A stretch of 64,000 nt of DNA from an uncultured bacterium (lineage in GTDB: Bacteria; Desulfobacterota; Binatia; HRBIN30; CADEER01): NCBI GenBank assembly GCA_902826395.1, contig CADEER010000012.1, positions 5,049 through 69,048 on the forward strand, in the 5' to 3' direction. The notes beneath the pieces were generated by a model. The model was not told the origin of the DNA. It did no database searches and worked only from the letters and a program-made list of their open reading frames with translations. The position numbers and the translations under genes are program-made. This document shows, piece by piece, positions 160-35,469 of this stretch; position 1 is the stretch's first letter, and the number at the start of each line of letters is the position of its first letter.

Positions 160-323
160 TCGGCGGTTCTCCAATCGAGTCGGACGCGCGGGCGGTGAGG
201 CTCGAAAAAATGCTGCGGATCGCGGCGCGAAAGCGACCTTCGTAGCACACGGATAAAATCTGATGCCAGCCGGAGGCGGTCGCCGTCCGCGCCCGCCGGC
301 CCAATCGGCTGTGGCAATTGACA

Positions 324-5091: not shown

Positions 5092-6801
5092 TTGATACGC
5101 CATCTGGGGCCGTGGGCCAGCCGTGCAGCGCTCATCTGTGTCGGCATCGTCGCCGCCCTGGCAATGCTCGAGGGCCTGTTGCGTCTGGGTGGTGTGCTCT
5201 ACGAGTTGCGACCGGGCGCCCGCAGCGGCGTACAACTGGCGAACAGCGACAGCTATCGGGTGCTCTGCCTGGGTGAATCAACCACAGCGGGACTGGCGTG
5301 GGGCGACCGCGCCTACCCGAACCAGCTCGAACGCATCCTGAACGAACGCGCCGGTGGCCGCGCGAAGTTCGCCGTGATCAACGGCGGCAAAGTGGCTACC
5401 ACTACCGATGTGATCGTCGCGCGCCTGCCTGCCATGCTGGACGAGATCGACCCGGATGTCGTCGTCACGATGATGGGCGTCAACGACGGAAAGGCGGTAG
5501 ACCCGTCGTTTCAGGTTGGCGGCGCGTTGCGTGTCTGGAAACTGATGCGGATGCTCTACAACCAGTATCGTCCACCGACCGAGGCGGCGGACGATGTGGA
5601 CGATCTACTCATGCGTGCCCGGGCGACGATGAAGTATTGGCCCGACGTCGCGATCGGATTGGCCGAGCGGATCATTCAGCTAGAGCCCGCCGACGTGCGC
5701 GGCTATCTGGTTCTGGCTGAAGCGCGATTCGCACAAAAGAAGGCCGGGCTGGCGGCCGAAGCGTACCTGAAGGCGCTCGAGCTCGATGGACCTGCAGTCC
5801 TGGCGTATGCGTTCACCGCCGACGAAAAGCTCAGCGACTTCCTCGACGGTGTCTTTGCCCGAGCGGAGACCAGCAGCTACGCGCTGGCAGCGCGCTCGGT
5901 GCTCGGGTTGCGCCGACTCAAACTGGCTGACGCGGATCATTATGCGCGCCGGGCGATCGAGATCGATCCGCACAACGCGATCGCGTTGGTCGTTCACGGG
6001 CGCGTGCTGCAACTGCGCGGTGCCGACATGGAGGCGCGTGTCGCGTTCTACGCTGCTGCCGAAGTGAATCCACGCGTCGTGGAGTTGCTCGAGGGACGCG
6101 GGCTGTTCCGGTCCGCCGCCCTCACTGAGATTGTGAGCGGTGAGGACTTTGTCGATCTCCTGGCGAAGGCGGGACCGGTCACCTCCGACGAACGCTGGTT
6201 GCGCGCCGCCGACGAGGAAGTCCGGGAGCGGTTCCGCGGTCTGCAGTTGGTGAAAAGCTGGGAGCAGATCGCGAATGGAGAGAACAGGGAGGCGGAGGAA
6301 TATCTGCGCCAGTTGGCCGATCCCGAAGCGCAGGTCGAACCGAGTGAACGCCTGCGCGCCTACGGGCAGTTGGCGATCCTGGCCTGGCAGCGCGGTGACG
6401 CCGCGGAAGCCGAGCGCTATCACGATCTGGTCGAAGAGGCGCTCGCCGACGGGGTCAACCCGAACACCCGGAAGAACTACCAGGCCCTGGCGAAGATTCT
6501 CGAAGAACGCGGGATCCCACTGGTCGCCGTGCAGTACCCGATGCGACGGTTGGACCCGCTGCGTGAGATGCTCGCGCCGGCGTCTGATGTCGTGTTCGTC
6601 AGCAACGAGCGAATCTTCAAGGATGCGCTTTTGGGCAGGCCGTATTCCGAAATCTTTGCCGATCTGTTCGCTGGTGACTTCGGACACACGAACATCGAGG
6701 GCAACAACATTCTCGCCGGCAATGTCGCCGAGGCGATCTTGAAGTTGGCACCGCAATCCGCGACCGAAGCGGGGGACGTCGCCGCGGCCGGCGAGGGTTG
6801 A
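5092..6801 (+). CDS. Membrane-anchored SGNH/GDSL-family hydrolase split by a TPR-repeat insertion
   Basis: A TTG start at 5092 follows a GGAGG RBS at 5080-5084. The product has an N-terminal TM helix. SGNH block I (VLCLGESTTAG) and block III (VVTMMGVNDG) are followed by ~300 aa of TPR-like helical repeats, then block V (DFGHTN, a DxxH motif) near the C-terminus. The upstream 1.3 kb of ORF 3781-6801 is spurious antisense of the 3337-4845 gene. Confidence 0.7.
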   Translation: MIRHLGPWASRAALICVGIVAALAMLEGLLRLGGVLYELRPGARSGVQLANSDSYRVLCLGESTTAGLAWGDRAYPNQLERILNERAGGRAKFAVINGGKVATTTDVIVARLPAMLDEIDPDVVVTMMGVNDGKAVDPSFQVGGALRVWKLMRMLYNQYRPPTEAADDVDDLLMRARATMKYWPDVAIGLAERIIQLEPADVRGYLVLAEARFAQKKAGLAAEAYLKALELDGPAVLAYAFTADEKLSDFLDGVFARAETSSYALAARSVLGLRRLKLADADHYARRAIEIDPHNAIALVVHGRVLQLRGADMEARVAFYAAAEVNPRVVELLEGRGLFRSAALTEIVSGEDFVDLLAKAGPVTSDERWLRAADEEVRERFRGLQLVKSWEQIANGENREAEEYLRQLADPEAQVEPSERLRAYGQLAILAWQRGDAAEAERYHDLVEEALADGVNPNTRKNYQALAKILEERGIPLVAVQYPMRRLDPLREMLAPASDVVFVSNERIFKDALLGRPYSEIFADLFAGDFGHTNIEGNNILAGNVAEAILKLAPQSATEAGDVAAAGEG

Positions 6802-9797: not shown

Positions 9798-11807
9798 TCA
9801 TCGCAACCTGACAGTGGGCACTGGACCCGCCGTTGGCGCGGCGGCAGTGGCCGCGACCTCTCTGATGGCGAACTCGCGGATGGTGAATTCCTCTTTGCCG
9901 AACCACATTTCGGCAGCTTGCTTCCCTTCGACGGTGAGTAACCCGATCTCGATGACGTGGGTGCCGGGGCCGATCGATCTCGGCAAGACCAGGTCGTAGT
10001 TCTCGAGAATGAGGTCCTGCTCGCGCAGCGGGCCGAACTCCGCCTGGTAGCGTGCCAGGTTGCCGAACCCCATCACGTGAGTGTCGAAGATCGCGCCGTC
10101 GATGCGAACCAGTACCGTGTAGCGAGCGGCCCCGACGAACGTCCATTTCAGCTCGAGGCGCAAGCGCGTCCGCGGCGGTTTCTCGATGGCCCTCACGTTT
10201 CGAGCGGCGAGCTCGACGGGTTGCTTGCCGGGGAAGCCACCCGGCGGCGGCGGGCGTCTCACGACGAGTCGCGGCGGCATGCGATCGACGCGGTACAGGA
10301 CGAGGCCCCTGGTCTGATCTCCCACCAGCTCCGGCGCCATCCAGGCGTTGGGCGGGAAGGGCGAGCGTGTGAAGGCCTCTTTCGGGCGGCCGTCCTTCAG
10401 CCTGAGCGTCGAGTACACAGGCTCGGGTGGCATGCGCAGTCGCTTGGGAAGAGAGTGAATCGTGACATCAGGGCGCCAGCCGAGGACCCTCTGAAAATAG
10501 TTGGCGCCCTGACCGAAGACACCGGCGCCGGGTGCCAGGTAGGCTTTGTGCGGCAGGTACACGAAGACGGTTTCGTAGAAGTCTTCGAAGGACGTGTCAT
10601 CCGTTCGATCGTTCTCCGCGAAGCTCGCCCGACACACGAAGATCGACCAGGTGCCGAGCAGCGCGACCAGTGCGACCTGCGCCGCGCGGCGTGCCGTTTG
10701 GCGGTCGGAGTCGATGCGAGACATCGCGGAGACCCAGATGGCTTCGGTTCCAAAACCCAGAAAGATCGCCCAGGCGATGTAGCTGGGCAGGAAGAAGACT
10801 TGCGTGTCGGTCGCATACACCTGCATCGCGATCGTGACGTTGACGGCGAAGAGGCCGCCGAAGAGCAGGAAGCGCTGCTTGTGAGCGCGCCACAGTGCCC
10901 TGATGCCGACCGCCCCAATCGCAATGCCGATGAGAGTGAAGTTCTCGTTGAGCCGGGCCAGGTAATAGAGGAATCGCGCCGGCAGCTTGTACCATGGGAA
11001 GGCGAAGCGAAGGTTGGAGAACGCTCCCAGGGTGTAGTTGTAGAACGCCTCCAGCGAGTCCGGCGGCGGATTGGGGAACGGCGCGGTATGCGCCATCAGA
11101 GGTAGCCAGACGTACTGCGACAGCCCGACCAGGAATACGAGAAAGCCGGCCGCGATGGTCATCGGCCGCTTAAGGATCGCGGTGTCGGTGGCCAGGATGA
11201 ACAGAGCGAATACGGCGCCGAAGGCGAGATTCGAAGTGTGACAACCCAGGGATATTCCATAGGCGAGCGCAAACTTGACGAAGGCCGCGGTCGAGCGGGT
11301 TTGCGCCCAGCCGAGTAGGAACCAGATGACCAGCGACAGGGCGAGAGCGTTGAGGGTGTACACCTCGGTGATGACCGCTTGCGACCAGAATGTCGTGCCG
11401 ATGCCGAACAGCATGGCGGCAAACGCCGCCGCTGCGGGACGCAGCCCCACCCGGCGCGCGACCGCGAAGATCGCGATCACCGCGCTCGCTGCATAGACGG
11501 CGGACAAGAAGTTGGTGCGATAGGCCAGCTCGCCGAACGGGAACAGCAGCGTGAACAAGTGGCCGAGCCAGGTGTAGAGCGGATAGCCGGTGCGGCGAGT
11601 CAATCGCAGCTCGGCGATCGCCATCGTGAACTCGTGGGTGTCGCCGGGTGGGTTGAGCGGATCGACCCGGAAACCCAGCCCGGGCGTCAGCGTCGACCAG
11701 TAGACGAACAGGTGGAAGCCGAAGAGTGCCAGGGCAATCGCCAGATCGGCGCGTCGAACCGCAGTCGCCGCGCCCGGCGATGGTTCACGAACTTCGGAGG
11801 ACTCCAC
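9798..11807 (-). CDS. DUF2723/TMEM260-like GT-C membrane glycosyltransferase-like protein
   Basis: The 669-aa ORF is a multi-TM protein with a ~250-aa soluble C-terminus. A D-T-H-E-F motif (PPGDTHEF) follows TM1, resembling the D(S/T)xE(F/L) signature of DUF2723. Confidence 0.65.
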   Translation of the reverse strand: MESSEVREPSPGAATAVRRADLAIALALFGFHLFVYWSTLTPGLGFRVDPLNPPGDTHEFTMAIAELRLTRRTGYPLYTWLGHLFTLLFPFGELAYRTNFLSAVYAASAVIAIFAVARRVGLRPAAAAFAAMLFGIGTTFWSQAVITEVYTLNALALSLVIWFLLGWAQTRSTAAFVKFALAYGISLGCHTSNLAFGAVFALFILATDTAILKRPMTIAAGFLVFLVGLSQYVWLPLMAHTAPFPNPPPDSLEAFYNYTLGAFSNLRFAFPWYKLPARFLYYLARLNENFTLIGIAIGAVGIRALWRAHKQRFLLFGGLFAVNVTIAMQVYATDTQVFFLPSYIAWAIFLGFGTEAIWVSAMSRIDSDRQTARRAAQVALVALLGTWSIFVCRASFAENDRTDDTSFEDFYETVFVYLPHKAYLAPGAGVFGQGANYFQRVLGWRPDVTIHSLPKRLRMPPEPVYSTLRLKDGRPKEAFTRSPFPPNAWMAPELVGDQTRGLVLYRVDRMPPRLVVRRPPPPGGFPGKQPVELAARNVRAIEKPPRTRLRLELKWTFVGAARYTVLVRIDGAIFDTHVMGFGNLARYQAEFGPLREQDLILENYDLVLPRSIGPGTHVIEIGLLTVEGKQAAEMWFGKEEFTIREFAIREVAATAAAPTAGPVPTVRLR

Positions 11808-11967: not shown

Positions 11968-12936
11968 GTGAGGTCGCCGGTGGCGGTCTCGCGGTGGATG
12001 CCGCGTTTCATCGGCCCTCTCGTCCTCGTCGCGATCCTGCTGACCCTGGACGTCGGCGACGTCGCGGTCGCTCTGCGGCGGGTCGATCTGATGGCGCTCG
12101 CCGGGGCCTGTCTGGCGGTGCTGCCGACCGTGCCGTTCCGTTCGTCGCGCTGGCGAATGTTGGTGGAGGCGGGTGGAGCCGAGTTGGGGGGGATGGAAGC
12201 GCTGCATGCCTATGCGTTCTCGATCGTCGCCGGGGCCGCGACGCCGGGGCGTCTCGGGGAGCTCGTCAAAGTCGGTCATTTGCGAAATCGCGGTGTGCCG
12301 GCCAGCACGGCGCTGCTGAGCGTCTCGCTGGATCGCCTGTTCGATGTGGTGTTCCTGATCGTCGTCGGCGCCGGTGCCGTTGTCGCGGTTTCCGGTCTGC
12401 GATCGCCATGGCTCATCGCGGCGGCCTCGGGCGGCGCGGCTCTCTCGTGCGGCGCTGTGATTGCGATCGTCTTGAGCGAGCGCGGCAGTGCAGTTCCGCT
12501 GGCGATCCTGACGCGGTTGGTGCCGGCGCGGTGGTCGCAGCGCGTTGCGAGATTGCTCGAATCAACCGCCGCGCAGGCGAAGAAGCTGCCGCGGCGGACG
12601 CTGACGATGTGCGGTGTCCTGACTGCGCTGACCTGGCTCGCTACGTATTTCGCCGTCTATCTGTGCGCCGTCGGCTTGCGGCTCGACGTGCCCTTCCTCG
12701 ACGTCTGCGGCGTAACGGCGGTGTCGTCGCTGGTGACATTCCTACCGATCTCCATTCTCGGCCTCGGCACGCGCGACGCGGCGCTCATCGCGCTGCTTGC
12801 GCCGTACGGTGTTGCCGCCAGCGACGCAGTGGCGCTGTCGGCGCTGTATCTAGGCATCACACTGTGGGTAGTGCTCGCCTGCGCCTATTCCCTGCTGACC
12901 CCGGCAGCACGCGCCTGGAAGCGTGGCTGGACGTGA
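11968..12936 (+). CDS. Flippase-like domain protein (lysylphosphatidylglycerol-synthase TM region family, PF03706-like)
   Basis: The ~320-aa ORF has 8 TM helices. The Gly-rich helical pattern is typical of the MprF flippase-domain/UPF0104 family. The start is either GTG 11968 or ATG 11998. Confidence 0.6.
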   Translation: MRSPVAVSRWMPRFIGPLVLVAILLTLDVGDVAVALRRVDLMALAGACLAVLPTVPFRSSRWRMLVEAGGAELGGMEALHAYAFSIVAGAATPGRLGELVKVGHLRNRGVPASTALLSVSLDRLFDVVFLIVVGAGAVVAVSGLRSPWLIAAASGGAALSCGAVIAIVLSERGSAVPLAILTRLVPARWSQRVARLLESTAAQAKKLPRRTLTMCGVLTALTWLATYFAVYLCAVGLRLDVPFLDVCGVTAVSSLVTFLPISILGLGTRDAALIALLAPYGVAASDAVALSALYLGITLWVVLACAYSLLTPAARAWKRGWT

Positions 12937-12958: not shown

Positions 12959-15055
12959 CTAGCGCGGGGCGGGCGGGTCCACCGCCGACTTCGCCAGCAC
13001 GAGAATCTGTTCGCGGCCGATCAAGATCTCGGGATCGCCGGCGATGCTGAGAGTTACGTCGTATCGGTTGTGCGAGACACCGACGATCTTGGCGTCGACG
13101 GCGATGTCGGTCGTACGTTCGGCTGCCAGGGCCAGCGGTAGCAGGCCCCGCACGGACTCCTCGTGCGCGACTTTGCGACCGCGCTTCCAGGTGACGCGGA
13201 AGGTCGTCGGCTCGATCGGATCCGCGTGGCGGAACGTCGCCGCACCTGCCTTGACGCCGAACCGCAGCCCCTTTTCGCCGAGGATCGACGGCAGGCGGCC
13301 GCGGCTGGCGATCGAGAGCGAGCGCACGTCCGTGGTGATCGGACCGTCCGCGACCAGACGCGCCACGCGCACCGTCTCGCCGGCTGCGATCGGTATCAGA
13401 TGAGGTCCGTCCGGCTCGCGGAGCGCCTCGAGGATTGCGTCGGCTCGGCGGCGCTCGCCGCTGATGTTTTGTACGTGAAAGATGACGTTGCGGAAGCCGA
13501 GAGCCCACAGCTCGCGGGCTGCGTCGGGATCGGGCAGGCGCCGCGCGATCGCGTTCACCTCATGCTGCACTGGAGTCAGGAACGACGATTTGCACGAGCT
13601 GACGCGCTGCTGGTGGTAGGCGCCGAGCAACACGTAGCGACTGAGATGACCTGCCCACAGAAAGCTGTAGTTGCCGGGAAGATCGAGCACCGGGCCGGGC
13701 GGTAGATCGCGCACGGCGACGAGGTCCGCCTCCGGCGGCCGCATCGGGAACGGCGCCGATGGGATGGGTTGGCCGAACGTCCAGTCGGCCCACGCCGGCG
13801 TCATGATCTCGGCCGCGCATACCAGCGCGATGATCGCAAAGGCGCTTGCCCGTCGCCATGACGCGCCGCGCTCTGGCGAAGCAACGGCATCCGCCAGCGC
13901 GCGAGCTCCGTACGCCGCCAGCAGCGCCAGTGGAACGATGATGCCGACGAATACGTTGTTGGGTGCCCGAATGGCTCCCAGTCCCGGTACCCACGACTGC
14001 GCCAGAGAGCGCAGCGAAGGCACGTTAAAGCCGGCCCAGGAGGTCGGTAGAGGAAGGACGAACCAGGTGACGGCGAACGCCGCCAGCGCCAGCGCCAAGC
14101 GCGGGTCATGGACGCGACGCCGCGGCTTGCCGAGAAAGCGATCAAGCAGGCCGATGGCGGCCAGCAGCAGCAGGCTGTTGCCGGGGTAGAGCCCGTGGCC
14201 GAGGAAGACTTGCGTGGGAAACGCCCAGGCTCTGCGACCCTCGAGAATTCCCCATGCCTCGCGCGTGCCGAGGTACGGACCGAGCGCCGCCCACGCCGTG
14301 CCCGCGATAGGTAGTGTCGCGAGGAGCAGCTGCGGCAAGATCTTCGGTAGCGTCCGCCAATGCTTGAAGCACAGGTAAGTGCCGTAGATGCCCACGATCA
14401 AGGCGTAGTGCAGGAGCACGTACATGCTCTCGAGACATTGTGCGGAGCCGACAGCAGCGAGCATGACGGCGTATCGCCACTGGCGGCGCGTGAAGACGAG
14501 ATCGAGCAGCAAGAGAACCAGCGGCATCCACTCGTTGGCGCGCACCGAAGGATGCTGCAGATCGAGCAGGCGCATCGGATGAAAGCCGAACAACAGCCCG
14601 GCGATCATTGCGGCTGCGCTGTTGCCCGTCCAGTAGAGCGCCAGCGCATACATGGAAAGGGCGGCGATCCAGGGTTTGAATGCGCCGACGAAGTTATAGG
14701 TGATCACCGGATCGCCGGAGAACAGGTACACCGGGAGTCCCTGCAACCCCTCGCCCAACATGTGCTCGCCGAAGGTGACGCTGTCGGCGCTCGGATGGCA
14801 CATGGCGCCGTCGAAGAACTCGAGCGGCCGCGTCGACAGCGTGCGCGCCGCGTAGACCAGTTGAGTGAGTCCGCGGGTCATATCACTGCCCACCAGTTCA
14901 GCTGGATAGCGGCTGGACTGCATAACGGGATCGAAGTTCACGACGGTCGCCGGGTGATCCAGAACCGCGCGGTTGCACCACAGGGCAACGACCGTGAAAA
15001 GCGCGACAGCCACTAGGTGGCGCGGCCACCTTGCGGAAACCCAATCGCCGCTCAT
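12959..15055 (-). CDS. Large GT-C/YfhO-like membrane protein, paralog 1 of 3
   Basis: The 698-aa ORF has an N-in TM1, a ~100-aa extracytoplasmic loop carrying a conserved FFDGAMCHP...FGEHMLGEGL block, ~12 more TM helices, and a ~300-aa C-terminal soluble domain (AYHQQRVSSCKSSFLTPVQ...ELWALGFR). It overlaps the upstream paralog by 4 nt. Confidence 0.8.
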   Translation of the reverse strand: MSGDWVSARWPRHLVAVALFTVVALWCNRAVLDHPATVVNFDPVMQSSRYPAELVGSDMTRGLTQLVYAARTLSTRPLEFFDGAMCHPSADSVTFGEHMLGEGLQGLPVYLFSGDPVITYNFVGAFKPWIAALSMYALALYWTGNSAAAMIAGLLFGFHPMRLLDLQHPSVRANEWMPLVLLLLDLVFTRRQWRYAVMLAAVGSAQCLESMYVLLHYALIVGIYGTYLCFKHWRTLPKILPQLLLATLPIAGTAWAALGPYLGTREAWGILEGRRAWAFPTQVFLGHGLYPGNSLLLLAAIGLLDRFLGKPRRRVHDPRLALALAAFAVTWFVLPLPTSWAGFNVPSLRSLAQSWVPGLGAIRAPNNVFVGIIVPLALLAAYGARALADAVASPERGASWRRASAFAIIALVCAAEIMTPAWADWTFGQPIPSAPFPMRPPEADLVAVRDLPPGPVLDLPGNYSFLWAGHLSRYVLLGAYHQQRVSSCKSSFLTPVQHEVNAIARRLPDPDAARELWALGFRNVIFHVQNISGERRRADAILEALREPDGPHLIPIAAGETVRVARLVADGPITTDVRSLSIASRGRLPSILGEKGLRFGVKAGAATFRHADPIEPTTFRVTWKRGRKVAHEESVRGLLPLALAAERTTDIAVDAKIVGVSHNRYDVTLSIAGDPEILIGREQILVLAKSAVDPPAPR

Positions 15056-17208
15056 TGCCGGTCCCCTGGAGCTGAGCCGCGGAGCGCACCCTTCGGTGAT
15101 TGCACTGCTTTCGGTTTAGCCGGGCGCACGACGATGCGTTCGACGCCGAGCACATGCGCCGACTCATCGGCGAGTGCGAAGGTCACGTCATATTTGCCGA
15201 GCGCCGTCGGCGCGGTCGCTTTGACGACCACGTCGACGGTGCGACCGGGCGCCAGTGTGATGGGCAACAGTCCTCGGGCGACCTCGGTGTGCACCACCGT
15301 CTGGTCGCGCCGCCAGGTCACGAGCAACTCGGTCGGCTGGATGGGATCGGGATGGCGAAACGTCGCACCGGTGCTGGTGACGCCGAACGGAACGCCGATA
15401 CCGCCGGCATGGGCCGGCAGGCGCGGCGCGGGCGCCGGCGAGAGCGAGTCGAGATCTCGCGAGATCGGTCCATCGGCCACCAAACGCGCTATGCGAATGG
15501 TGTCGCCGGCCGGCAGCGGCACCAGGTGCGCGCCCGCGGCCGGGTCGGCGAGTCCGTTCAGAATCCGGTCGGTGTCGGCGCGGATGCGCTCGATGTCCTG
15601 CGCATGGAAGACGATGCTGCGGAAGCCGAGTGCCCACAGCTCGCGCGCCGCGTCGACGTCGGGTAGCCGCTCGGCGATGCGATTGACCTCGAACTGGATG
15701 GGTGTGTGAAACGACGCCTTACAGGTCGATATGCGGTGCTGGTGGTAGGAGCCGAGCAGCACGTAGTCGCTCAGCTCGCCGATCCAGAAGAAGTTGTAGT
15801 TGCCGGGTAAATCCAACACTGGACCGGGCGGCAGATTGCGCGCGGCCGCGAGATCGCCCTCGGGCGGTCGCAGCCGATAGGTGGCGGCAGGCAGCGCGGC
15901 TCCGAAGCTGCGCCGTGCGACGGCAGGTACGAAGACCTCGATCGCACAAGCTAGCGCGAGCACCGCCAGCGCGATGCCGCGCGCCGCGCTGCCGACCCGG
16001 GTCTCCATGGCGCGAATACCGTAGGCGGCGAGCACCGCCAGAGGCACGATGGCGGCAAAGAATACTTTGTCGGGTGCTCGCACCGCGGCGACACCCGGCA
16101 CATACGAACGCATCAAGTCGCCGAGTGACGGCACGCCGAACTGCGTGCCCGGTACCTGGAGTGGGAACAGGAACCATACCGCCGCCAGCGCTGCGGCAGT
16201 CAGGGGCAATCGCGGGTCGACGGGTCGCTCGCGAGTTTTTCCGAACAGTCGGTCGGCGAGACCCAGCAATGCGAGCAGCGACAGGCAAACGCCAGCGAAG
16301 TAGCGGCCTCCGAACCAGAAGAACCAAGGCGGCCCCTGGAAACCGCCGGGGCGATCGACGAATCCCCAGATCCGGCGGGTCTCGAGATATGGACCGAGTG
16401 CCCACGCCATGGTTACCGCGATGGCAGCGGCGACCGGCACCAGGCGGGGCAGGATCACCGCCAGCGCCGTCCGGTACTTCCAAAGCAGATAGAGTCCGTA
16501 GCTGCCGACGACCAATGCATACTGGATCAGCACGTACATGCTCGACAGCGCCTGCACCGAGGCGAATAGCGCCAGCGCCAGCGCGTCGCGCCAGCGACGT
16601 CGCGCGAAGACGCGGTCGAGAAAGAGCAGAATCAGGGGAATCCATTCGTTGCCGACCACCGACGGGTGTGCGGCATCGCTCAACCTCAGTGGATGGAAGC
16701 CGAACAGAAACCCGGCTAGCAGCGCCGCCCCCCAGCTCGACGTCCAGTGATAAGCCAACGCGTACATCCCCGCGGCGGCGATCCAGGGTTTGATCGTGGC
16801 GACGAAGTTGTAGGTGATGACCGGATCGTCCCAGAGGAGCTGGACCGGCGCGCCGACGATGCCGTCGGCGAGCATGTGCTCTCCGAACGCCACGCCATCG
16901 ACCGGATAGCACATCCACCCGGTGAAGAAGTCCTGCGGCGCGGTGGGCAGAGTCCTCGCGACATACGAAAGCTGTGCGACGCCGCGTTTGAGGTCGCTCG
17001 CCGCGAACTCGACCAGTTTGTCGAGATCGCGCTGCGACTTTCGCGGGAAATCGACGGATGGATCGTAGGTGACTACCGTGGCCGGATCGTTCAGCACGGC
17101 GCGCGAGTTCCACAGGGCGGCGCTCGCGAAGACGCACATCCCCAGCAGGTGCAATCCCCAGCGCATCATGGTCGGGCGAACTCTCATCCAGCAGGCGGGA
17201 CGGCGCAA
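15052..17208 (-). CDS. Large GT-C/YfhO-like membrane protein, paralog 2 of 3
   Basis: The 718-aa ORF is collinear with paralog 1 and ~55-65% identical by eye (FFTGWMCYP...FGEHMLADGI; SYHQHRISTCKASFHTPIQ...ELWALGFR). Confidence 0.8.
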   Translation of the reverse strand: MRRPACWMRVRPTMMRWGLHLLGMCVFASAALWNSRAVLNDPATVVTYDPSVDFPRKSQRDLDKLVEFAASDLKRGVAQLSYVARTLPTAPQDFFTGWMCYPVDGVAFGEHMLADGIVGAPVQLLWDDPVITYNFVATIKPWIAAAGMYALAYHWTSSWGAALLAGFLFGFHPLRLSDAAHPSVVGNEWIPLILLFLDRVFARRRWRDALALALFASVQALSSMYVLIQYALVVGSYGLYLLWKYRTALAVILPRLVPVAAAIAVTMAWALGPYLETRRIWGFVDRPGGFQGPPWFFWFGGRYFAGVCLSLLALLGLADRLFGKTRERPVDPRLPLTAAALAAVWFLFPLQVPGTQFGVPSLGDLMRSYVPGVAAVRAPDKVFFAAIVPLAVLAAYGIRAMETRVGSAARGIALAVLALACAIEVFVPAVARRSFGAALPAATYRLRPPEGDLAAARNLPPGPVLDLPGNYNFFWIGELSDYVLLGSYHQHRISTCKASFHTPIQFEVNRIAERLPDVDAARELWALGFRSIVFHAQDIERIRADTDRILNGLADPAAGAHLVPLPAGDTIRIARLVADGPISRDLDSLSPAPAPRLPAHAGGIGVPFGVTSTGATFRHPDPIQPTELLVTWRRDQTVVHTEVARGLLPITLAPGRTVDVVVKATAPTALGKYDVTFALADESAHVLGVERIVVRPAKPKAVQSPKGALRGSAPGDRQ

Positions 17209-17246
17209 CCTTCCGGGATTCTCCGGCTCGAGGTGCAGCCTGCGAC

Positions 17247-19283
17247 CTACTCGATGACTTTCACGCGTTGCGTCCCGATGATGTGTTCCGGTTGAGCTAC
17301 CGGTGCCAGGGTCACCTGGTAGATCGCGGCCTCGCGAGGTGCGCGATCCGCAACGACGATTTCGGTCTTGTGTCCGGGCGCGAGAGCGAGCGGCAGCAGA
17401 ACCCGCTGCTGCGTGGTCTGCGCAACGGCATCGTCACGGTTCCAGCGCACGACGACTTCCGTCGGCTGTACCGGATCTGGGTGTCGGAACGTCCTGCCGC
17501 CGGCGCTCTGCACGCCGAAGCGCGGCGCGATGTCGGAATTGGCCAGAACCGACCGCTTGCGAGCGACCGGCGCGAGCGAGGCGAAGTCGCTCGTCGTCGG
17601 CCGACCGGCCTCCAGGCGATACACTCGAAGCGTTGCGCCCGATGCGATCGGCTGTAGTCGAGGTCGTGCGTCGGCCCTCGACAATCGTTCGATGATCTCG
17701 TCGGCACGGCGTCGACGATCTTCGTCCTTCTGTCCGGAGAAGATGATCGTTCGCAGGCCGAGTGCCCAGAGCTCCTGGGCCGCGCGCGAGCTTGGCAAGC
17801 GGTCGACGATCGCGGCGATCTCGGTCTGCACCGGGGTTACGAAGGATGCCCGGCACGCTGCGAGCCGGCGTCGATGGTAGGCGCCGAGGAGCGCGTTGTG
17901 ACTCATGAAGAGTGAGCTCGCGCCTTGGTAGGACAACGGTATGTCGAGAACGGGTCCGGGCGGCAGATCGCGCAGCGCCGCCAGATCCTCCGCCGCAGGT
18001 CGGACGTGCAGCGTCGACGTCGGCAGCGGAGATCCAAAACTCACGCTCGCCAATCGGGGATGGAACACCTCGGCGGCGCAGCCCAGCGCGAGACCGGCGC
18101 TGGCCATGATCCGCGTCCTCGGCGAGAGCTTCTCGACCAGGGCCAGCACTCCGTAGGCGGCCATCAAGCCGAGGGGCGCGACGACGAGGAAGTACACGTT
18201 GCCCGGTGCGCGCACCGCATCGAGGCCGGGAAGCCAGGCGCGCAAGAGACGGTCGAGGGACGGCACCGCGAAGTCGGTGCCCGGCACTTGCCATGAGAGC
18301 ACGAACCAGCTCGCCGCCAATGCGAGTGCGGCCATCGGCAGTCGCGGGTCGTGTCCGAGTCGCGATCTAGCTCCGCGCAGCCGGTCCAGCATGCCGACGG
18401 AAGCGAGAATGAGCAGGCCGATCCCGACAAATCGGTGACCGCCGAAATGGACGAACTTCGACACAGTCGGAAAACCCACGCGGTCTTGCAGGACGCCCCA
18501 GATCTCGCGAGTCACCAGATAGGGTCCGAGTACCCAGAAGCCGCTTGCCCCGAGCGCAACCACCACCAGCGCCAGCTTGGGCAGGAGACCTGCTAGCTCG
18601 CCGCGGAATCGCCAAGACAAATAGGTTCCGTAGATGCCGCCGACCAGCGCGAGCTGGAGAACCACGTAGAAGCTCTCGAGAATCTGCAACGCCACGAGCG
18701 CGGCGAGGAGCAGTGCGTCCCGCCAGCGCCTGTTTGCGAAGAGTAACTGTAGTGCGAGCAGAATTGCCGGAAGGATCTCGTTGCCCACCACGGATGGGTG
18801 CGCGAGGTCGCGCAGGCGCATGGGGTGGAAGCCGAACAGAAATCCGGCGATCAGCGCCGCCCCGGAGCTTCCCGTCCAGTAGTACGCCAGCGCGTACATG
18901 CTCACGGCCCCGATCAAGGGCCGCGCAATGACTACGAAGTTGAACGTGACTACGGGGTCGTTCGACAGCAGGTATGCCGGGGCGCCCAGCAGGCCCTCGC
19001 CGAGCATGTGCTCTCCCAGGCTGACGCTGTTCGGAGTCGGGTAACACATCGGGCCTTCGAAGAATCGCCACGGTTCGCGCGTGAGAATTCGGCTGGCATA
19101 GGCCGTCTGGGCGATGTTCCGCCGCACGTCGGATGCCAAGAGGGGACTGTCGGGATAGCTGACCGTGACGAGCGCGGACGGATCTCGCAGCACGGCGCGC
19201 GACGGCCAGAGAGCGGCGATTGCGAACGCACCAACCGCCAGAGCGTGGATTGCAGGGTGTGTTCGCCTACCGGATATGATCAT
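17247..19283 (-). CDS. Large GT-C/YfhO-like membrane protein, paralog 3 of 3
   Basis: The 678-aa ORF has the same architecture (FFEGPMCYP...LGEHMLGEGL; AYHRRRLAACRASFVTPVQ...ELWALGLR). It is the first gene of the three-gene minus-strand operon. Confidence 0.8.
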   Translation of the reverse strand: MIISGRRTHPAIHALAVGAFAIAALWPSRAVLRDPSALVTVSYPDSPLLASDVRRNIAQTAYASRILTREPWRFFEGPMCYPTPNSVSLGEHMLGEGLLGAPAYLLSNDPVVTFNFVVIARPLIGAVSMYALAYYWTGSSGAALIAGFLFGFHPMRLRDLAHPSVVGNEILPAILLALQLLFANRRWRDALLLAALVALQILESFYVVLQLALVGGIYGTYLSWRFRGELAGLLPKLALVVVALGASGFWVLGPYLVTREIWGVLQDRVGFPTVSKFVHFGGHRFVGIGLLILASVGMLDRLRGARSRLGHDPRLPMAALALAASWFVLSWQVPGTDFAVPSLDRLLRAWLPGLDAVRAPGNVYFLVVAPLGLMAAYGVLALVEKLSPRTRIMASAGLALGCAAEVFHPRLASVSFGSPLPTSTLHVRPAAEDLAALRDLPPGPVLDIPLSYQGASSLFMSHNALLGAYHRRRLAACRASFVTPVQTEIAAIVDRLPSSRAAQELWALGLRTIIFSGQKDEDRRRRADEIIERLSRADARPRLQPIASGATLRVYRLEAGRPTTSDFASLAPVARKRSVLANSDIAPRFGVQSAGGRTFRHPDPVQPTEVVVRWNRDDAVAQTTQQRVLLPLALAPGHKTEIVVADRAPREAAIYQVTLAPVAQPEHIIGTQRVKVIE

Positions 19284-19537
19284 CTGCCTGGTGCGGTGTT
19301 CGATCCCGGACAGCCTGCTCGAATCGGTCCGTCATGGCGGATATGCCCGGTGGCCGTTCGGCTTCGCTGGCAATACGGATGTGGTTCTTGGTAGACAAGC
19401 CGACGGCACCGAGTCGACCGATCTTTCCGATCGGGGCGAGGCGAACGAAGGGGCACCAGGATGAGGTCGCCCAGGATCCGTCGCCCATGGTCGATCACCG
19501 GTAGTAGTTCCATGAAAAGTGAATGCAGGAGAGGTTC

Positions 19538-20749
19538 ATGAGAGTTCTCATCACCGGCGTCGACGGCTATCTGGGCTGGGCGCTGTCTCTACATCTGGCC
19601 GGTCGTGGGCACCAGGTGGCCGGCATCGACAACTACTCCCGGCGCGACTGGGTGCAGGAGATGGCATCGCAGTCGGCGACCCCGATTGCCCGCATGTCGG
19701 ATAGGCTCCTCGCCTACTACAAGCGGTTCGGCAAGAATCTGATCTTCCACAAGGGCGATCTGACCGACTTCAACTTCGTCCTGAACGTCTACAAGAGCTT
19801 CCGACCCGAGGCGATCGTCTATCTCGGCGAGATGCCGTCGGCGCCTTACAGCATGCTCGACGTGCACCACGCGGTGTACACGCAGACCAACAACATCGTC
19901 GGCACCCTGATGACCCTGTACGCGATGGCCGATGCGGTGCCCGAGTGTCATCTGGTGAAGCTCGGTACCATGGGCGAGTACGGCACTCCCAACGTCGACA
20001 TCCCCGAGGGCTTCTTCGAGATCGAGTACCGCGGCCGCAAGGACCGGATGATGTTCCCGCGCAAGGCGGGGAGCTGGTACCACCAGTCCAAGGTGCACGA
20101 CACCAACAACGTCGAGATGGCCTGCCGCCTGTGGGGCTTGCGCTCGACCGACATCATGCAGGGTGTGGTGTACGGCACGCGCGTCGATGAGATGGCGGGC
20201 GATGCGCACTTGCTGACGCGGTTCGACTTCGACCAATGCTTCGGCACGGCGATCAACCGCTTCTGCGCGCAGGCAGTCGTCGGTCTGCCATTGACGCCGT
20301 TCGGCAGAGGAACGCAACGACGCGGTTTCCTGCCGCTCCGCGACTCCGTGCAGTGCCTGACGCTGGCGGTGGAAAATCCGCCCGAGGCCGGCGAGTATCG
20401 CGTCTTCAACCAGTTTGAAGAGGTGTACAGCATCATGGAGCTGGCTGAAAAAGTCCGCACGGTGGCGGGCCGCCTCGGCATGGACGTCGAAATCCAGCCG
20501 CTCGAGAACCCGCGCATCGAGGCGGAGGATCACTACTACAATCCCGACCATCGACACCTGCTCGATCTCGGCTACCAGCCGACGCAGGACATGGAGAGCG
20601 AGCTCGAGATCGTGCTCAAGGACCTGCTCGAGTACCGCGATCGCATCGAGGCCCGCCAGGAGGCGCAGTTCCCGGACATCCGCTGGGACCGCGAGCGGCG
20701 CCGCTCGCAGACACTCCCCGCCGCGGGTGAGCGAAAGGCCGCTGGCTGA
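19538..20749 (+). CDS. sqdB: UDP-sulfoquinovose synthase (SQD1/SqdB family SDR)
   Basis: A GGAGAGG RBS sits 3 nt before ATG 19538. The product is collinear with plant SQD1 and bacterial SqdB across diagnostic blocks: RVLITGVDGYLGWA (Rossmann), MPSAPYSMLD, HHAVYTQTNNIVGTL, VKLGTMGEYGTPNVDIPEG, AGSWYHQSKVHD, GTAINRFCAQAVVG, and RVFNQFEEVYSIMELA. Confidence 0.9.
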   Translation: MRVLITGVDGYLGWALSLHLAGRGHQVAGIDNYSRRDWVQEMASQSATPIARMSDRLLAYYKRFGKNLIFHKGDLTDFNFVLNVYKSFRPEAIVYLGEMPSAPYSMLDVHHAVYTQTNNIVGTLMTLYAMADAVPECHLVKLGTMGEYGTPNVDIPEGFFEIEYRGRKDRMMFPRKAGSWYHQSKVHDTNNVEMACRLWGLRSTDIMQGVVYGTRVDEMAGDAHLLTRFDFDQCFGTAINRFCAQAVVGLPLTPFGRGTQRRGFLPLRDSVQCLTLAVENPPEAGEYRVFNQFEEVYSIMELAEKVRTVAGRLGMDVEIQPLENPRIEAEDHYYNPDHRHLLDLGYQPTQDMESELEIVLKDLLEYRDRIEARQEAQFPDIRWDRERRRSQTLPAAGERKAAG

Positions 20750-20768: not shown

Positions 20769-21770
20769 ATGAACTGGCTGATCACGGGAGGCTGCGGATT
20801 CATCGGCACGAATCTGATCCGTTACCTCCGCGATCGCGGCGATCAGAGCGTTCGCGTGTACGACGACCTGAGCGTCGGGCGAACCGACGATCTCGCGGCG
20901 GTTGCTCCGATCGCGGAAGCAGCATCCGCGCCCGGCGAGTTCGCTCCGCCAGGTGGCCCGGTGCAGCTCGTGGTCGGCGACATCGAGAATGCCGAGGATC
21001 TCTGCGCGGCTGCCCACGGCGCCGACGTCGTCGTTCACCTCGCCGCCAGTACGGGCGTGTTGCCGTCGATCGAGAATCCGCGCCAGGACTGCAACGCCAA
21101 CGTGATCGGTACGCTGAATGCTCTCGAGGCGGCCCGCCTGCAGGGCGTCGACCGCTTCGTGTTTGCGTCGTCCGGCGCCGTGCTCGGCGAGCAGTTGCCG
21201 CCGATCGACGAGGGCAAGGTGCCGAAGCCGCTGTCGCCGTACGGCGCCGGCAAGCTCGCGGGAGAAGGGTACTGTTCCGTGTACGCGGCCTGTTACGGAA
21301 TCCACACCGCGGCGCTGCGGTTCGGCAACGTCTACGGTCCCGGCTCGGCGTCGAAGGGCAGCGTCGTCGCCAAGTTCATCAAGCAGGCTTTGGCAGGCGA
21401 GAAACTGGTGATCTACGGCGACGGCGCGCAGACGCGCGACTTCATCTACGTCGAGGATCTCGTCGACGCGGTGTTTCGCGCCGCGACTCTCGGCGCCGGC
21501 GGCGAGGTGTTCCAGATCGCCACCAACCGCGAAACCACCGTCAACGAGATCGTCGAGATGCTGTCATCGCTGGTTCACGAGGTGACCGGTCGCGAGGTCG
21601 AGGTCGAATACGCAGCGGCTCGCTCCGGCGAGATCCTGCGCAACTACGCCGACGTCTCCAAGGCGAAGCGCCTGCTCGGTTGGCAGCCGGTGCACTCTCT
21701 GCGCGATGGGCTGCGCGAGACCGTGCGCTGGTACGTCGAGGGCGGCCGCGCCGGCGGGGTCGCGGCGTAG
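20769..21770 (+). CDS. NAD-dependent nucleotide-sugar epimerase/dehydratase (UDP-glucose 4-epimerase-like SDR)
   Basis: MNWLITGGCGFIGTNL is a GxxGxxG Rossmann motif, and PYGAGK is the YxxxK catalytic motif. It lies 19 nt downstream of sqdB. The 5' part of ORF 20415-21770 is a frame artefact. Confidence 0.85.
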   Translation: MNWLITGGCGFIGTNLIRYLRDRGDQSVRVYDDLSVGRTDDLAAVAPIAEAASAPGEFAPPGGPVQLVVGDIENAEDLCAAAHGADVVVHLAASTGVLPSIENPRQDCNANVIGTLNALEAARLQGVDRFVFASSGAVLGEQLPPIDEGKVPKPLSPYGAGKLAGEGYCSVYAACYGIHTAALRFGNVYGPGSASKGSVVAKFIKQALAGEKLVIYGDGAQTRDFIYVEDLVDAVFRAATLGAGGEVFQIATNRETTVNEIVEMLSSLVHEVTGREVEVEYAAARSGEILRNYADVSKAKRLLGWQPVHSLRDGLRETVRWYVEGGRAGGVAA

Positions 21771-21785: not shown

Positions 21786-22841
21786 ATGGGATCGATCTCG
21801 GTCTTGCGGCTGATCGGCGTCGTCGCCGGCTTGTACGTCGTCGCGTCGGCGTTCTGGGGATTCCGCGCGCGGCGGATCAACCGTCGCGAGACGCTGGTCC
21901 GCTGGCTGGTCGGCGGCGGCCTGGTCGTCGTCAGTCTGTTTCCCGACAGCATCAATTTCCTCCGCGACGTGCTGGCCCTCGATTCGGATGCGTACGGCAG
22001 GCTCCTCGCCCTGCTCGTCGTCTCGAACCTGCTCATCTGGCTGCTGTTCCTGCGCCAGCGCGGCAAGGTCTATCTGCTCGGCCGCCACCTCGACGGCCTG
22101 GTGCGAAGCTCGATGGTGCTGCGCAACCCCGAAGAGGGCCTCGCCAACCTGCCGGCCGGCGTCGACGTGCTGGTCGTGCTGCCGGCGTACAACGAAGAGC
22201 AAAACCTGCCCGGGGTGCTGGCGCGAATGCCCAAGGAGATCGACGGGTACACCGTCGGCGTCGCGGTGATCGACGATGGCAGCGAGGACGCCACTCGCCG
22301 CGTCGCTCTCGAGGCGGGAGCCGGCGTCGTGTCCAATCCGATCCGCCGCGGCCAGGGGGCGGCGTCGCGCCTCGGCTACGATCTGGCGCGGCGACTCGAT
22401 GCCAAGGTGGTGGTCACCCACGATGCCGACGGCCAGCACAGCCCCGAGGAGATCGCCACGGTGATCCGGCCGATCCTCGCCGGCGACAAAGATTTCGTCA
22501 TCGGCTCGCGACTGTTGGGCGAGCGCGAGAGCGACAGCCAGGTGCGCCTGGTAGGCATCCACGTCAACAACTTGCTGATCAACTTCCTCGCCGGCACCGG
22601 GGTGTCGGACTGCTCGAGCGGTTTCAAGGCGATCCGCGTCGAATCGCTGAAACAGTTCGAGCTCGCCGAGGACCAGTTTCAGGCAGCCGAAGCGATCATC
22701 GCCGCGGCGAAAGCCGGGCTGCGCATCGGCGAGGCGCCGATCACCGTAAAGCGGCGGTGGACTGGCGAGAGCAAGAAGGGCCGCAATTTCAGCTACGGCC
22801 TCAACTTCACGCGCACCGTGCTCAAGGCCTGGTGGAAGTGA
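21786..22841 (+). CDS. Polyprenyl-phosphate glycosyltransferase (GT2, DPM1/GtrB/ArnC-like) with an N-terminal 3-TM extension
   Basis: VLVVLPAYNEE, AVIDDGSEDAT (DxD) and VVTHDADGQHSPEE are GT2 DPM1-family blocks. The first ~100 aa form three TM helices (DUF2304-like). Confidence 0.8.
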   Translation: MGSISVLRLIGVVAGLYVVASAFWGFRARRINRRETLVRWLVGGGLVVVSLFPDSINFLRDVLALDSDAYGRLLALLVVSNLLIWLLFLRQRGKVYLLGRHLDGLVRSSMVLRNPEEGLANLPAGVDVLVVLPAYNEEQNLPGVLARMPKEIDGYTVGVAVIDDGSEDATRRVALEAGAGVVSNPIRRGQGAASRLGYDLARRLDAKVVVTHDADGQHSPEEIATVIRPILAGDKDFVIGSRLLGERESDSQVRLVGIHVNNLLINFLAGTGVSDCSSGFKAIRVESLKQFELAEDQFQAAEAIIAAAKAGLRIGEAPITVKRRWTGESKKGRNFSYGLNFTRTVLKAWWK

Positions 22842-23596
22842 AAGCCGACGCCGCCGCACCCGCTAGCCCGGTCCGCGACTTCTACGAGGCGAAGTATCTC
22901 GCCGGCGAGGAGATCCAGCGCACCAGCAAGCTGTACACGCTCGACTGTGTTCCCGCGGCCGGGGCGCTGGAGATCATCGACATCGGCTGCGGCACTGGGC
23001 ACAACTCGCGAGCGATGGCCGCCAGGGGACACCGCGTGCGGGGCATCGACATCTCCGAGCACGCCATCGCGCGGTACCGGGAGAGCGGCTTCGACGGCCG
23101 CACGATGGATATCGAGCGCGGGCTCGAGTTCGCCGACGAGTCGTTCGATCTGGCCTTCTGCTCGGAGGTGATCGAACATCTCGTCCGTCCGGAGCGCTTC
23201 GCGGCGGAGGTGCGCCGCGTGCTGCGCCCGGGCGGCCGCTTGGTGCTGTCGACGCCGAACTCGGCCTTCTGGCTCTACCGCGTCCTCGCCGTGTTCGGCT
23301 GGGTCGTCAGCGACGTCCAACACCCCATGCACCTGCGCTTCTTCACGCGCGCCAGCCTGCGCCGTCTGCTGGAGGGAGCGGGTTTCCGCGTCGACACGGC
23401 GCTCGGCCGCAACATGTACCTGATCCTGCCGGACCCGCGCCTCGAAGCGCTGCGGTCGCTCTATCGCGCGGTGGGCCTGCGCGAGGAGATCCGCTTCACG
23501 ACCAAGAAGAGCTTCTGGCACCTGTCGTCGCGGTCCGGCTTCTGGAGCTCCTTGTTCGCGGACACGCTGATCTTCGCCGTCGTCAAAGACCGCTGA
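22838..23596 (+). CDS. Class I SAM-dependent methyltransferase
   Basis: A GTG start overlaps the GT2 stop (GTGA). IIDIGCGTGHNS is motif I. It has a ~250-aa Methyltransf_11/23-like fold. Confidence 0.8.
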   Translation: MKADAAAPASPVRDFYEAKYLAGEEIQRTSKLYTLDCVPAAGALEIIDIGCGTGHNSRAMAARGHRVRGIDISEHAIARYRESGFDGRTMDIERGLEFADESFDLAFCSEVIEHLVRPERFAAEVRRVLRPGGRLVLSTPNSAFWLYRVLAVFGWVVSDVQHPMHLRFFTRASLRRLLEGAGFRVDTALGRNMYLILPDPRLEALRSLYRAVGLREEIRFTTKKSFWHLSSRSGFWSSLFADTLIFAVVKDR

Positions 23597-25857: not shown

Positions 25858-25952
25858 GATGCCTCCTCATGGTGCGAGCTGCGTTTGAGGAGCCATCTCT
25901 AGCGACTGCGCCGCGCGCAGCGCAACGCCGGCGGCTGCGGTCGCGACCCCAG

Positions 25953-25990
25953 GACTGCAAGGCCGCATGTCGCTGCAGTCCTTGCAGTCC
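25953..25990 (-). terminator. GC-rich hairpin downstream of lon (possible intrinsic terminator lacking a U-tract)
   Basis: A perfect 10-bp inverted repeat ggactgcaag (25953-25962) / cttgcagtcc (25981-25990) flanks an 18-nt loop. It lies 17 nt after the lon stop. No T-run follows it on the minus strand. Confidence 0.3.
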
Positions 25991-26006
25991 CCTTGGTCCC
26001 TTTGTC

Positions 26007-35304: not shown

Positions 35305-35469
35305 TGCTCGCCCACCACGAACCGGCGACTATAGCGAAGGCCACGCACCCCGGCCATGCACCCGCCGAATCCCCGCTTTTTTCGTCCGCCGATTGCCTGA
35401 TATGAGTCGCATCAGACACTGCGCTCTTCGTGGGTCGGGGCGGTCGTAGGTTATCGAGGAAGGCAGGTC

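Follow-up and report, generated by a model that had tools for sequence, protein, structure and literature searches.

Three tandem GT-C-fold membrane proteins beside a putative sulfoquinovose donor module in an uncultured Binatia bacterium

In a stretch of 64,000 nucleotides from an uncultured bacterium of the Binatia (contig CADEER010000012.1 of assembly GCA_902826395.1; the whole stretch is referred to as the window), three consecutive genes encode large membrane proteins of similar sequence, designated P1, P2, and P3. The question raised by this locus is which reaction would be served by three such proteins, from which activated sugar, and why they are kept as three copies. The answer put forward here is that P1 to P3 would act as periplasmic GT-C glycosyltransferases of a Gtr/Arn-like system, with a donor that is probably derived from sulfoquinovose (SQ) and with copies that differ in acceptor or linkage. 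Taken as a whole, this reading has about an even chance of being correct.

Genes, fold, and family of P1 to P3

The three genes are arranged as follows.

17247-19283, minus strand: P1, GT-C-fold paralog, 678 amino acids, ATG start
15052-17208, minus strand: P2, GT-C-fold paralog, 718 amino acids from a TTG start
12959-15055, minus strand: P3, GT-C-fold paralog, 698 amino acids, ATG start

As three minus-strand open reading frames of about 700 amino acids, they lie exactly where a preliminary description of the window, made from the letters alone, had placed them. The encoded proteins are collinear over their full length, from the first transmembrane helix to the last beta strand (BLASTP E = 0), with amino acid identities of 48.4% (P1/P2), 47.7% (P1/P3), and 52.7% (P2/P3), which is lower than the 55-65% that had been estimated by eye. 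Pairwise alignment at the DNA level, in which near-identity would have betrayed a duplication introduced by assembly, gave identities of 56-60%, synonymous divergence (dS) of 1.1-1.4, and ratios of nonsynonymous to synonymous divergence (dN/dS) of 0.34-0.43. From the DNA identity and dS it follows that the duplication is old. That P1 to P3 are real genes is evident from a GC content at third codon positions of 0.78-0.81 in a window of approximately 66% GC, from full-length homologues elsewhere, and from dN/dS values below 1.

Translational coupling had been described for the entire triplet; it fits one junction only, because an overlap exists solely between P2 and P3, where stop and start codon share the four nucleotides ATGA (cggcaATGAgc). 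P1 and P2 are separated by a gap of 38 nt without overlap, which widens to 59 nt with the ATG at 17187 as the start of P2. This ATG, yielding a protein of 711 amino acids, is the probable true start of P2 and is favored by the N-termini of homologues. For P1, the ATG start giving 678 amino acids fits the homologues. The public protein P0014 corresponds to P1 minus 30 residues (648 amino acids), its GTG start being placed 30 codons late, with loss of the conserved first transmembrane helix (TM1), while P0007, a protein from an NCBI contig, is identical to P3. Of two signature motifs pointed out previously, that of the first extracytoplasmic loop, FF[DTE]GxMC[HY]P...[FL]GEHML[GA][ED]G, is found as written in all three proteins. 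The C-terminal block is likewise present in each of them, but with six instead of four residues between RLP and ELWALG, and with SYH instead of AYH at its beginning in P2.

A structural model of P2 was built with AlphaFold2 on 24 homologues (predicted local distance difference test score, pLDDT, 87.2; predicted template modeling score, pTM, 0.88). It comprises an N-terminal part of about 11 transmembrane helices and a soluble C-terminal part, in which an alpha/beta domain (residues ~436-570) is followed by a beta-sandwich (~571-700). According to the modeled helices, the first external loop, EL1, extends over the 94 residues 35-128, and the charges in the sequence are distributed according to the positive-inside rule, which places the N-terminus inside and the C-terminus outside. 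The same architecture is assigned to each of P1, P2, and P3, with a long first loop and the C-terminal domain on the periplasmic side. In a Foldseek comparison of the model with the PDB, all 21 matches at E <= 1e-3 were GT-C enzymes. They include STT3 of the oligosaccharyltransferase OST (1.5e-7) and AftA (1.5e-6; target TM-score, TMt, 0.53), together with DPY19, ArnT, and PglB, followed by EmbB and ALG6; ArnT stands at rank 16 among these matches, which is a likeness at the level of the fold only.

At the sequence level, the only family reached is PF10131 (PTPS_related) of Pfam, a family without assigned function that belongs to the GT-C clan CL0111 (PMC7801869). Its gathering cut-off of 26.4 bits is passed by P1 (30.9 bits) and P2 (27.8 bits), P3 remaining at 8.7 bits. 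Out of 621 profile positions, about 155 (11-166) are covered, and PF10131 is matched by 16 of 75 diverse family members. Since the match is partial, P3 falls below the cut-off, and so few relatives are recognized, the proteins are seen as a satellite family and not as PF10131 proper. NCBIfam gave no match for P1, P2, or P3. The preliminary description had named YfhO, PMT, and ArnT for comparison; by sequence P1 to P3 do not belong there, with no match to PF09586, PF02366, or PF13231 (YfhO, PMT, and PMT_2/ArnT, resp.) at E <= 1. Alignment by hhalign of the family profile with the PMT_2 and TMEM260-like proteins of the window yielded probabilities below 1%, and the residues of EL1 could not be mapped to known catalytic motifs. 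P1 to P3 contain no WWDxG (WW[DE]) motif and no match to PF02516 (STT3); an identity as oligosaccharyltransferase was rejected on account of the missing motif. The earlier label "GT-C-like" is thus upheld by the P2 model, by its 21 top matches, and by the PF10131 scores of P1 and P2, and nothing places the three proteins in a family of nontransferases. That they are GT-C glycosyltransferases is considered very likely.

A word-indexed search retrieved 31 relatives, all unnamed, and an exhaustive profile search through 1.84 billion cluster representatives retrieved 12,138 matches at E <= 1e-3, of which 1,527 were at E <= 1e-30. The best 150 matches listed all have E <= 1e-119, and most of them span nearly the whole profile. 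The family is large, uncharacterized, and unnamed, and marginally related to PF10131 by sequence. Metagenome-assembled genomes with relatives, as seen in a genome scan with an alignment of 15 close sequences, carry the labels Thermodesulfobacteriota, Deltaproteobacteria, Candidatus Binatia, and Myxococcales.

Conservation was counted in 142 sequences sharing 24-38% identity with P2, whose numbering from the TTG start is used throughout. Near-invariant are D72 (137 sequences), P91, C100 (139), P102, G109, P129, N134, H181, W189, R199, Y225 (142), the segment D331-P-R333 (140 for R333), P371-G372, R377 (141), C496 (140), S499, and G528. In the GEHML motif, the glutamate is conserved in 73% and the histidine in 60% of these sequences. 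In solved GT-C enzymes, the proposed catalytic aspartate follows TM1 (PMC11127046). No acidic residue of EL1 other than D72 is conserved, and D72 would be the candidate for the catalytic base of P2; R377, H181, and Y225 are candidates for binding of the lipid phosphate. A disulfide bridge is probable between C100 of EL1 and C496 of the C-terminal domain, as suggested by the fact that both cysteines are periplasmic and conserved in ~98% of the sequences.

The putative donor module and the maintenance of three copies

The neighborhood of the triplet contains the following genes.

19523-20749, plus strand: UDP-sulfoquinovose synthase of the SQD1/SqdB/Agl3 type (matches to NF041015 and SQD1)
20769-21770, plus strand: short-chain dehydrogenase/reductase (SDR), UDP-hexose 4-epimerase-like, 333 amino acids (PDB matches)
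21786-22841, plus strand: GT2 glycosyltransferase with an N-terminal DUF2304 domain of three transmembrane helices, polyprenyl-phosphate glycosyltransferase type (Pfam GT2 and DUF2304)
11968-12936, plus strand: flippase-like membrane protein with an MprF-type LPG_synthase_TM domain (PF03706), start codon uncertain

These genes had escaped the preliminary description; among them, those for the SQ synthase, the GT2 enzyme, and the flippase-like protein suggest what the donor might be. The SQ synthase scores 567.7 bits against NF041015 (E 1.1e-170), just below the cut-off of 575 bits, and matches SQD1 of Arabidopsis (1I24/1QRR) over its full length at E 4.5e-128. The motifs GTMGEYG and YHxSK are kept, the catalytic Thr, Tyr, and Lys of UDP-sulfoquinovose synthase being taken from the literature (PMC4388408). 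In the PDB, the SDR is closest to the UDP-glucose 4-epimerase 4ZRM (1.3e-55) and to WbpP/WbgU. Among NCBIfam models, the GT2 enzyme matches AglJ (7.7e-28), PpgS (2.6e-26), and the dolichyl-phosphate (Dol-P)-hexose transferase, with ArnC further down; among PDB entries, it matches the Dol-P-mannose synthase 5MLZ (2e-14) and ArnC (3e-10). Judged by these similarities, a GtrB-like polyprenyl-phosphate glycosyltransferase is encoded near P1 to P3.

The genes for SQ synthase, SDR, and GT2 succeed one another directly on one strand, with gaps of 15-19 nt, and this operon is divergent from P1. The intergenic region of 239 bp that separates it from the operon of P1 (19284-19522) presumably carries both promoters; no match to the sigma-70 consensus was found in it, and scans for promoters, terminators, and Rfam families gave nothing informative. 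On the other side of the triplet, the flippase-like gene abuts P3 in convergent orientation (PF03706, 6e-44; TIGR00374 "flippase-like domain", 3e-20). There is no GtrA or MATE gene at the locus; the PF03706/TIGR00374 gene is found instead.

The block of SQ synthase, SDR, and GT2 recurs, divergent from a family GT-C gene and with the flippase-like gene alongside, in L001, L002, L010/L011/L015, L012, and L013, i.e., in five independent metagenomic loci with one to three family copies. Across the loci with the module, the SQ synthases are 86-91% identical, as compared with 50-63% for the GT-C proteins. More distant family members (32-40% identical) often lie beside a GT2 gene without an SQ synthase (L004, L017, L020-23, and L026), from which we infer that the pairing with GT2 is family-wide and the link to sulfoquinovose specific to the clade.

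The maintenance of three copies was followed on a neighbor-joining tree with bootstrap, with the JGI contig L001 as the main comparison locus. The tree assigns P1, P2, and P3 to three orthogroups, all of which include sequences from other metagenomes. The P2 orthogroup has a bootstrap value of 100; that of P3, as used in the later comparisons, has 64, its core (WIN_P3, P0006, and L001_b) reaching 98; and that of P1, which branches earliest, has 73 with its seven members, or 87 without P0008. L001 carries one-to-one orthologues of P1 (61% identical), P2 (63%; P0001), and P3 (59%), that of P1 being displaced beyond the flippase-like gene. Three family copies are present in the window and in L001, two in L010 and L013, and one in L002 and L012. 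The dN/dS values calculated between the window and L001 are rough, since dS is near saturation; they are listed here.

P1: 0.26
P2: 0.24
P3: 0.29
flippase-like protein: 0.29
TMEM260-like GT-C: 0.29
SQ synthase: 0.07
GT2: 0.14

P1, P2, and P3 are all under purifying selection and all maintained. In the same comparison, the rate of change of the envelope-facing proteins is about fourfold that of the cytoplasmic enzymes of donor synthesis. As a separate observation, the cytoplasmic enzymes of the window (SQ synthase, an alcohol dehydrogenase, an epoxide hydrolase, and GT2) are 81-89% identical to their counterparts in L001, and all membrane- or periplasm-facing proteins of the locus only 59-66%, which suggests that the envelope-facing parts of the locus evolve faster.

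Distinct acceptor or donor specificities of the three proteins had been proposed from the triplication itself. The three orthogroups, the one-to-one orthologues in L001, and purifying selection are consistent with this proposal and do not prove it. Change is fastest in the C-terminal beta-sandwich and in the external loops EL4 and EL5, and it is in these two periplasmic loops that identity drops most steeply between the orthogroups. Positions that are fixed differently between the three orthogroups are few, however (4 by strict and 20 by relaxed counting), so that separate specificities are plausible but not demonstrated. Distinct roles of the three copies are, on balance, rather favored.

A proposed pathway and its alternatives

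Periplasmic glycosylation has been described as a framework of three components, in which a GtrB-like synthase is joined by a flippase and by a GT-C enzyme (PMC11127046). From this architecture, together with the likeness to ArnC and ArnT, the following pathway is proposed for P1 to P3. UDP-sulfoquinovose would be made in the cytoplasm from UDP-glucose and sulfite by the divergent operon, and would possibly be 4-epimerized by the SDR. The DUF2304-containing GT2 enzyme would place the sugar on polyprenyl phosphate, and the MprF-type flippase-like protein would bring the lipid-linked sugar to the periplasmic face of the membrane. There, P1, P2, and P3 would transfer the sugar to an envelope glycan or glycoconjugate, each of them to a position or acceptor of its own, and the acceptor would be recognized by their C-terminal domains. 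A diderm envelope is indicated by genes for RND and TonB/ExbD proteins nearby. Gene structure, paralogy, fold, family size, orthogroups, purifying selection, and the synteny with the donor module are thus observed, and the donor, the acceptor, the roles of the residues, and the separate specificities are inferred. Taken by itself, the derivation of the donor from sulfoquinovose is a tentative assignment, which falls somewhat short of an even chance.

With the Gtr systems of Shigella and Salmonella (GtrA/GtrB/Gtr*) and the GT136 pentofuranose enzymes (PMC11127046), the locus would share the logic of loading, flipping, and transfer, a GT-C with an acceptor-binding C-terminal domain, and a GtrB-like GT2 enzyme; in those systems, it is the GT-C paralogs that set the site or the linkage. 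The locus departs from them by a GT-C family that is another one and unnamed, by a flippase candidate of the MprF type (PF03706) and not GtrA or MATE, by a sugar that would be sulfoquinovose-derived, and by at least three further GT-Cs that accompany the three of the family. The ArnC/ArnT system, which serves the aminoarabinose modification of lipid A, resembles the locus in that dedicated enzymes modifying a nucleotide sugar stand beside an undecaprenyl-phosphate-sugar GT2 and a periplasmic GT-C, and ArnC and ArnT are themselves among the PDB matches; it differs in the type of flippase, the sugar, and the number of GT-Cs, and P1 to P3 are no members of ArnT/PMT_2 by sequence. Three tandem GT-C paralogs with C-terminal carbohydrate-binding domains are also known from the mycobacterial EmbC-EmbA-EmbB/Aft system, in which the acceptor specificity of the Emb proteins has diverged, and AftA is among the best structural matches of the P2 model. 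Yet the Emb proteins have ~1,100 amino acids, use decaprenyl-phosphate-arabinose made by another route, and show no detectable sequence relationship, and the host of the present locus is of Gram-negative type. With at least six GT-C-fold enzymes around one donor module, the locus is closer in spirit to mycobacterial extracytoplasmic arabinan or mannan assembly than to the modification of a single side chain. The first enzyme, UDP-sulfoquinovose synthase, is the same as in the pathway from SQD1/SqdB to the synthase of sulfoquinovosyl diacylglycerol (SQDG) and in Agl3-dependent N-glycosylation of Sulfolobus (PMC4388408). The known routes transfer sulfoquinovose in the cytoplasm from UDP-SQ to diacylglycerol or to a lipid-linked N-glycan, whereas the neighborhood of a polyprenyl-phosphate-type GT2, a flippase-like protein, and GT-C proteins would imply extracytoplasmic transfer in the present case.

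Several points weigh against the proposed pathway. No characterized enzyme is found in the family, and no PDB entry is matched by sequence, profiles of 3 and of 75 sequences having given chance matches only. The TM-scores to solved GT-C enzymes are modest (0.32-0.53), which speaks for the same fold class without a close solved relative, and D72 lies 38 residues past TM1, which is further than in ArnT or PglB. The flippase-like protein is of the MprF type and not of the GtrA type; among the named NCBIfam entries, the one closest to it is a flippase for a glycerolipid. Some close family members (L008/L024 and L016) stand alone without the module, no paper was found on polyprenyl-phospho-sulfoquinovose or on a GT-C enzyme using sulfoquinovose, and the GT2 enzyme could use UDP-glucose or UDP-galactose instead.

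This last point leads to the alternative that the GT-C proteins are fed by the GT2 enzyme with an ordinary polyprenyl-phosphate-hexose (glucose or galactose), while the SQ synthase serves a sulfolipid or a cytoplasmic glycan. It would account for distant members that pair with GT2 but lack the SQ synthase, for the UDP-glucose and UDP-GlcNAc 4-epimerases as best PDB matches of the SDR, and for the resemblance of the GT2 enzyme to generic Dol-P-hexose synthases. What speaks against it is the linkage of the three donor genes, which follow each other on one strand at gaps of 15-19 nt and are kept together beside a family GT-C in five independent loci, and the finding that no GT4 or GT8 gene of the SQDG type is among the annotated neighbors; an ordinary hexose donor is regarded as unlikely, albeit as an explanation to be taken seriously. 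The donor could also be an oligosaccharide linked to polyprenyl diphosphate, with P1 to P3 acting in the manner of an oligosaccharyltransferase, ligase, or polymerase, or the three proteins could have a noncatalytic role. STT3 subunits are indeed the best Foldseek matches, and the size of the C-terminal domain in the periplasm is reminiscent of PglB and AglB; but the WWDxG motif and a Pfam STT3 match are missing, a GT2 enzyme of the polyprenyl-phosphate type is repeatedly found beside family members, and STT3 scores little better than AftA, DPY19, and ArnT with their monophosphate donors. Charged periplasmic residues are, moreover, strongly conserved, which is unlike a purely structural role, and we consider this explanation, in both of its variants, quite improbable.

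Concerning the number of genes, P1 to P3 might be the subunits of one hetero-oligomeric GT-C machine, comparable to EmbA-EmbB. Their tandem order with the ATGA overlap of P2 and P3, the retention of all three in L001, and the presence of EmbA-EmbB and Pmt1-Pmt2 heterodimers among the solved GT-C matches would fit such an assembly. It would hardly be reconciled with close relatives that have between one and three copies (one in L002 and L012, two in L010 and L013), with the position of the flippase gene in L001 between the P1 orthologue and the two others, or with the full set of near-invariant residues in all three proteins, none of which looks dead, so that there is little probability for it. 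The idea that the triplication stems from the assembly or from a duplication of very recent date has nothing but the tandem arrangement in its favor; it is refuted by the nucleotide divergence and dS given above, the separation into three orthogroups that are represented in other metagenomes speaks against it as well, and its probability is negligible.

In its most far-reaching form, the preferred pathway of periplasmic transfer from a flipped lipid-linked sugar would be the first for extracytoplasmic sulfoquinovosylation. It would employ polyprenyl-phosphate-sulfoquinovose or its 4-epimer as the flipped donor and a new GT-C family with three linkage- or acceptor-specific sulfoquinovosyltransferases, which could, together with at least three other GT-Cs of the locus, build or decorate a sulfonated, strongly anionic envelope glycan outside the cytoplasm. 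This form is put forward with reserve and has somewhat less than an even chance. The GT-C family and the putative flippase partner are new, and so, probably, is the sugar. Sulfoquinovose is known almost exclusively from the thylakoid lipid SQDG and from archaeal N-glycans, to both of which it is transferred intracellularly from UDP-SQ. If the proposal is true, lipid-phosphate-linked sulfoquinovose with periplasmic GT-C enzymes would represent a new activated sugar and a new glycosyltransferase family, and a new sink for sulfoquinovose in soil and sediment bacteria. Whatever the sugar, a fold and a genetic context are now given for a large family that is left unnamed by the databases, with D72, H181, Y225, R333, R377, and the C100/C496 pair as candidate residues for testing.

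Further genes of the locus and of the window

Beyond the flippase-like gene, the locus continues with the following genes.

9798-11807, minus strand: GT-C, TMEM260-like (PF11028, 1e-20); syntenic in L001, L012, and L013
8591-9733, minus strand: SGNH/GDSL, AlgX-like protein; syntenic in L001, L012, and L013
6798-8606, plus strand: GT-C, PMT_2/ArnT-like (PF13231, 1.6e-9); syntenic in L012 and L013
~5100-6801, plus strand: SGNH/GDSL protein with TPR repeats, start not resolved; gene type also in L013
1825-3306, minus strand: GT-C-fold polytopic protein, 492 amino acids (AlphaFold2 model, pLDDT 89, and Foldseek)

The AlgX-like protein is a possible glycan O-acyl-modifying enzyme. The stop of the SGNH/GDSL-TPR gene overlaps the start of the PMT_2/ArnT-like gene. 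For the protein encoded at 1825-3306, neither Pfam nor NCBIfam gave a match. The best PDB match of its model is ArnT (5F15; E 8.4e-6; query TM-score, TMq, 0.55), all following matches are GT-C enzymes, and AglB, Pmt4, ALG12, and STT3 are among the structures matched. It carries an invariant GDD directly after TM1 and has homologues on the L001, L012, and L013 contigs; on the strength of the model, it represents a further unnamed GT-C family within the conserved locus. At least six GT-C-fold enzymes are thus encoded around one lipid-linked-donor module.

Adjoining this gene on the same strand, 3337-4845 (minus) encodes a polytopic protein of 502 amino acids with ~11-13 hydrophobic segments and without a family match, of which a 56%-identical copy is found at the end of L013. 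The product of 264-1808 (plus) matches the Pfam family Sulfatase (PF00884); its sequence contains the segment TLPT and, as LLSCGAC, a signal like that of lipoproteins. A link to sulfatases through this gene was considered and rejected, as the protein lacks the C/SxPxR formylglycine motif; it is probably not a sulfatase but a phosphotransferase or phosphodiesterase with a threonine nucleophile. Family members in L003, L008/L024, and L025 are likewise flanked by genes of the sulfatase family. The content of the locus is modular between genomes, as follows from extra genes that have no counterpart in the window, namely, a GH2 glycoside hydrolase in L012 (13377-15617) and YfhO-like GT-Cs in L013 (8667-10895) and L014 (7085-9379).

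In the remainder of the window, 29698-35328 (minus) encodes a UvrA-like protein of 1,876 amino acids with repeated ABC and UvrA interaction/DNA-binding domains, which corresponds roughly to a doubled UvrA. The long open reading frames 25869-27413 (plus) and 22793-23521 (minus) have translations rich in Arg, Ala, Asp, and His and look like antisense shadows; the region of L001 that matches 25869-27413 encodes a Lon protease on the opposite strand.

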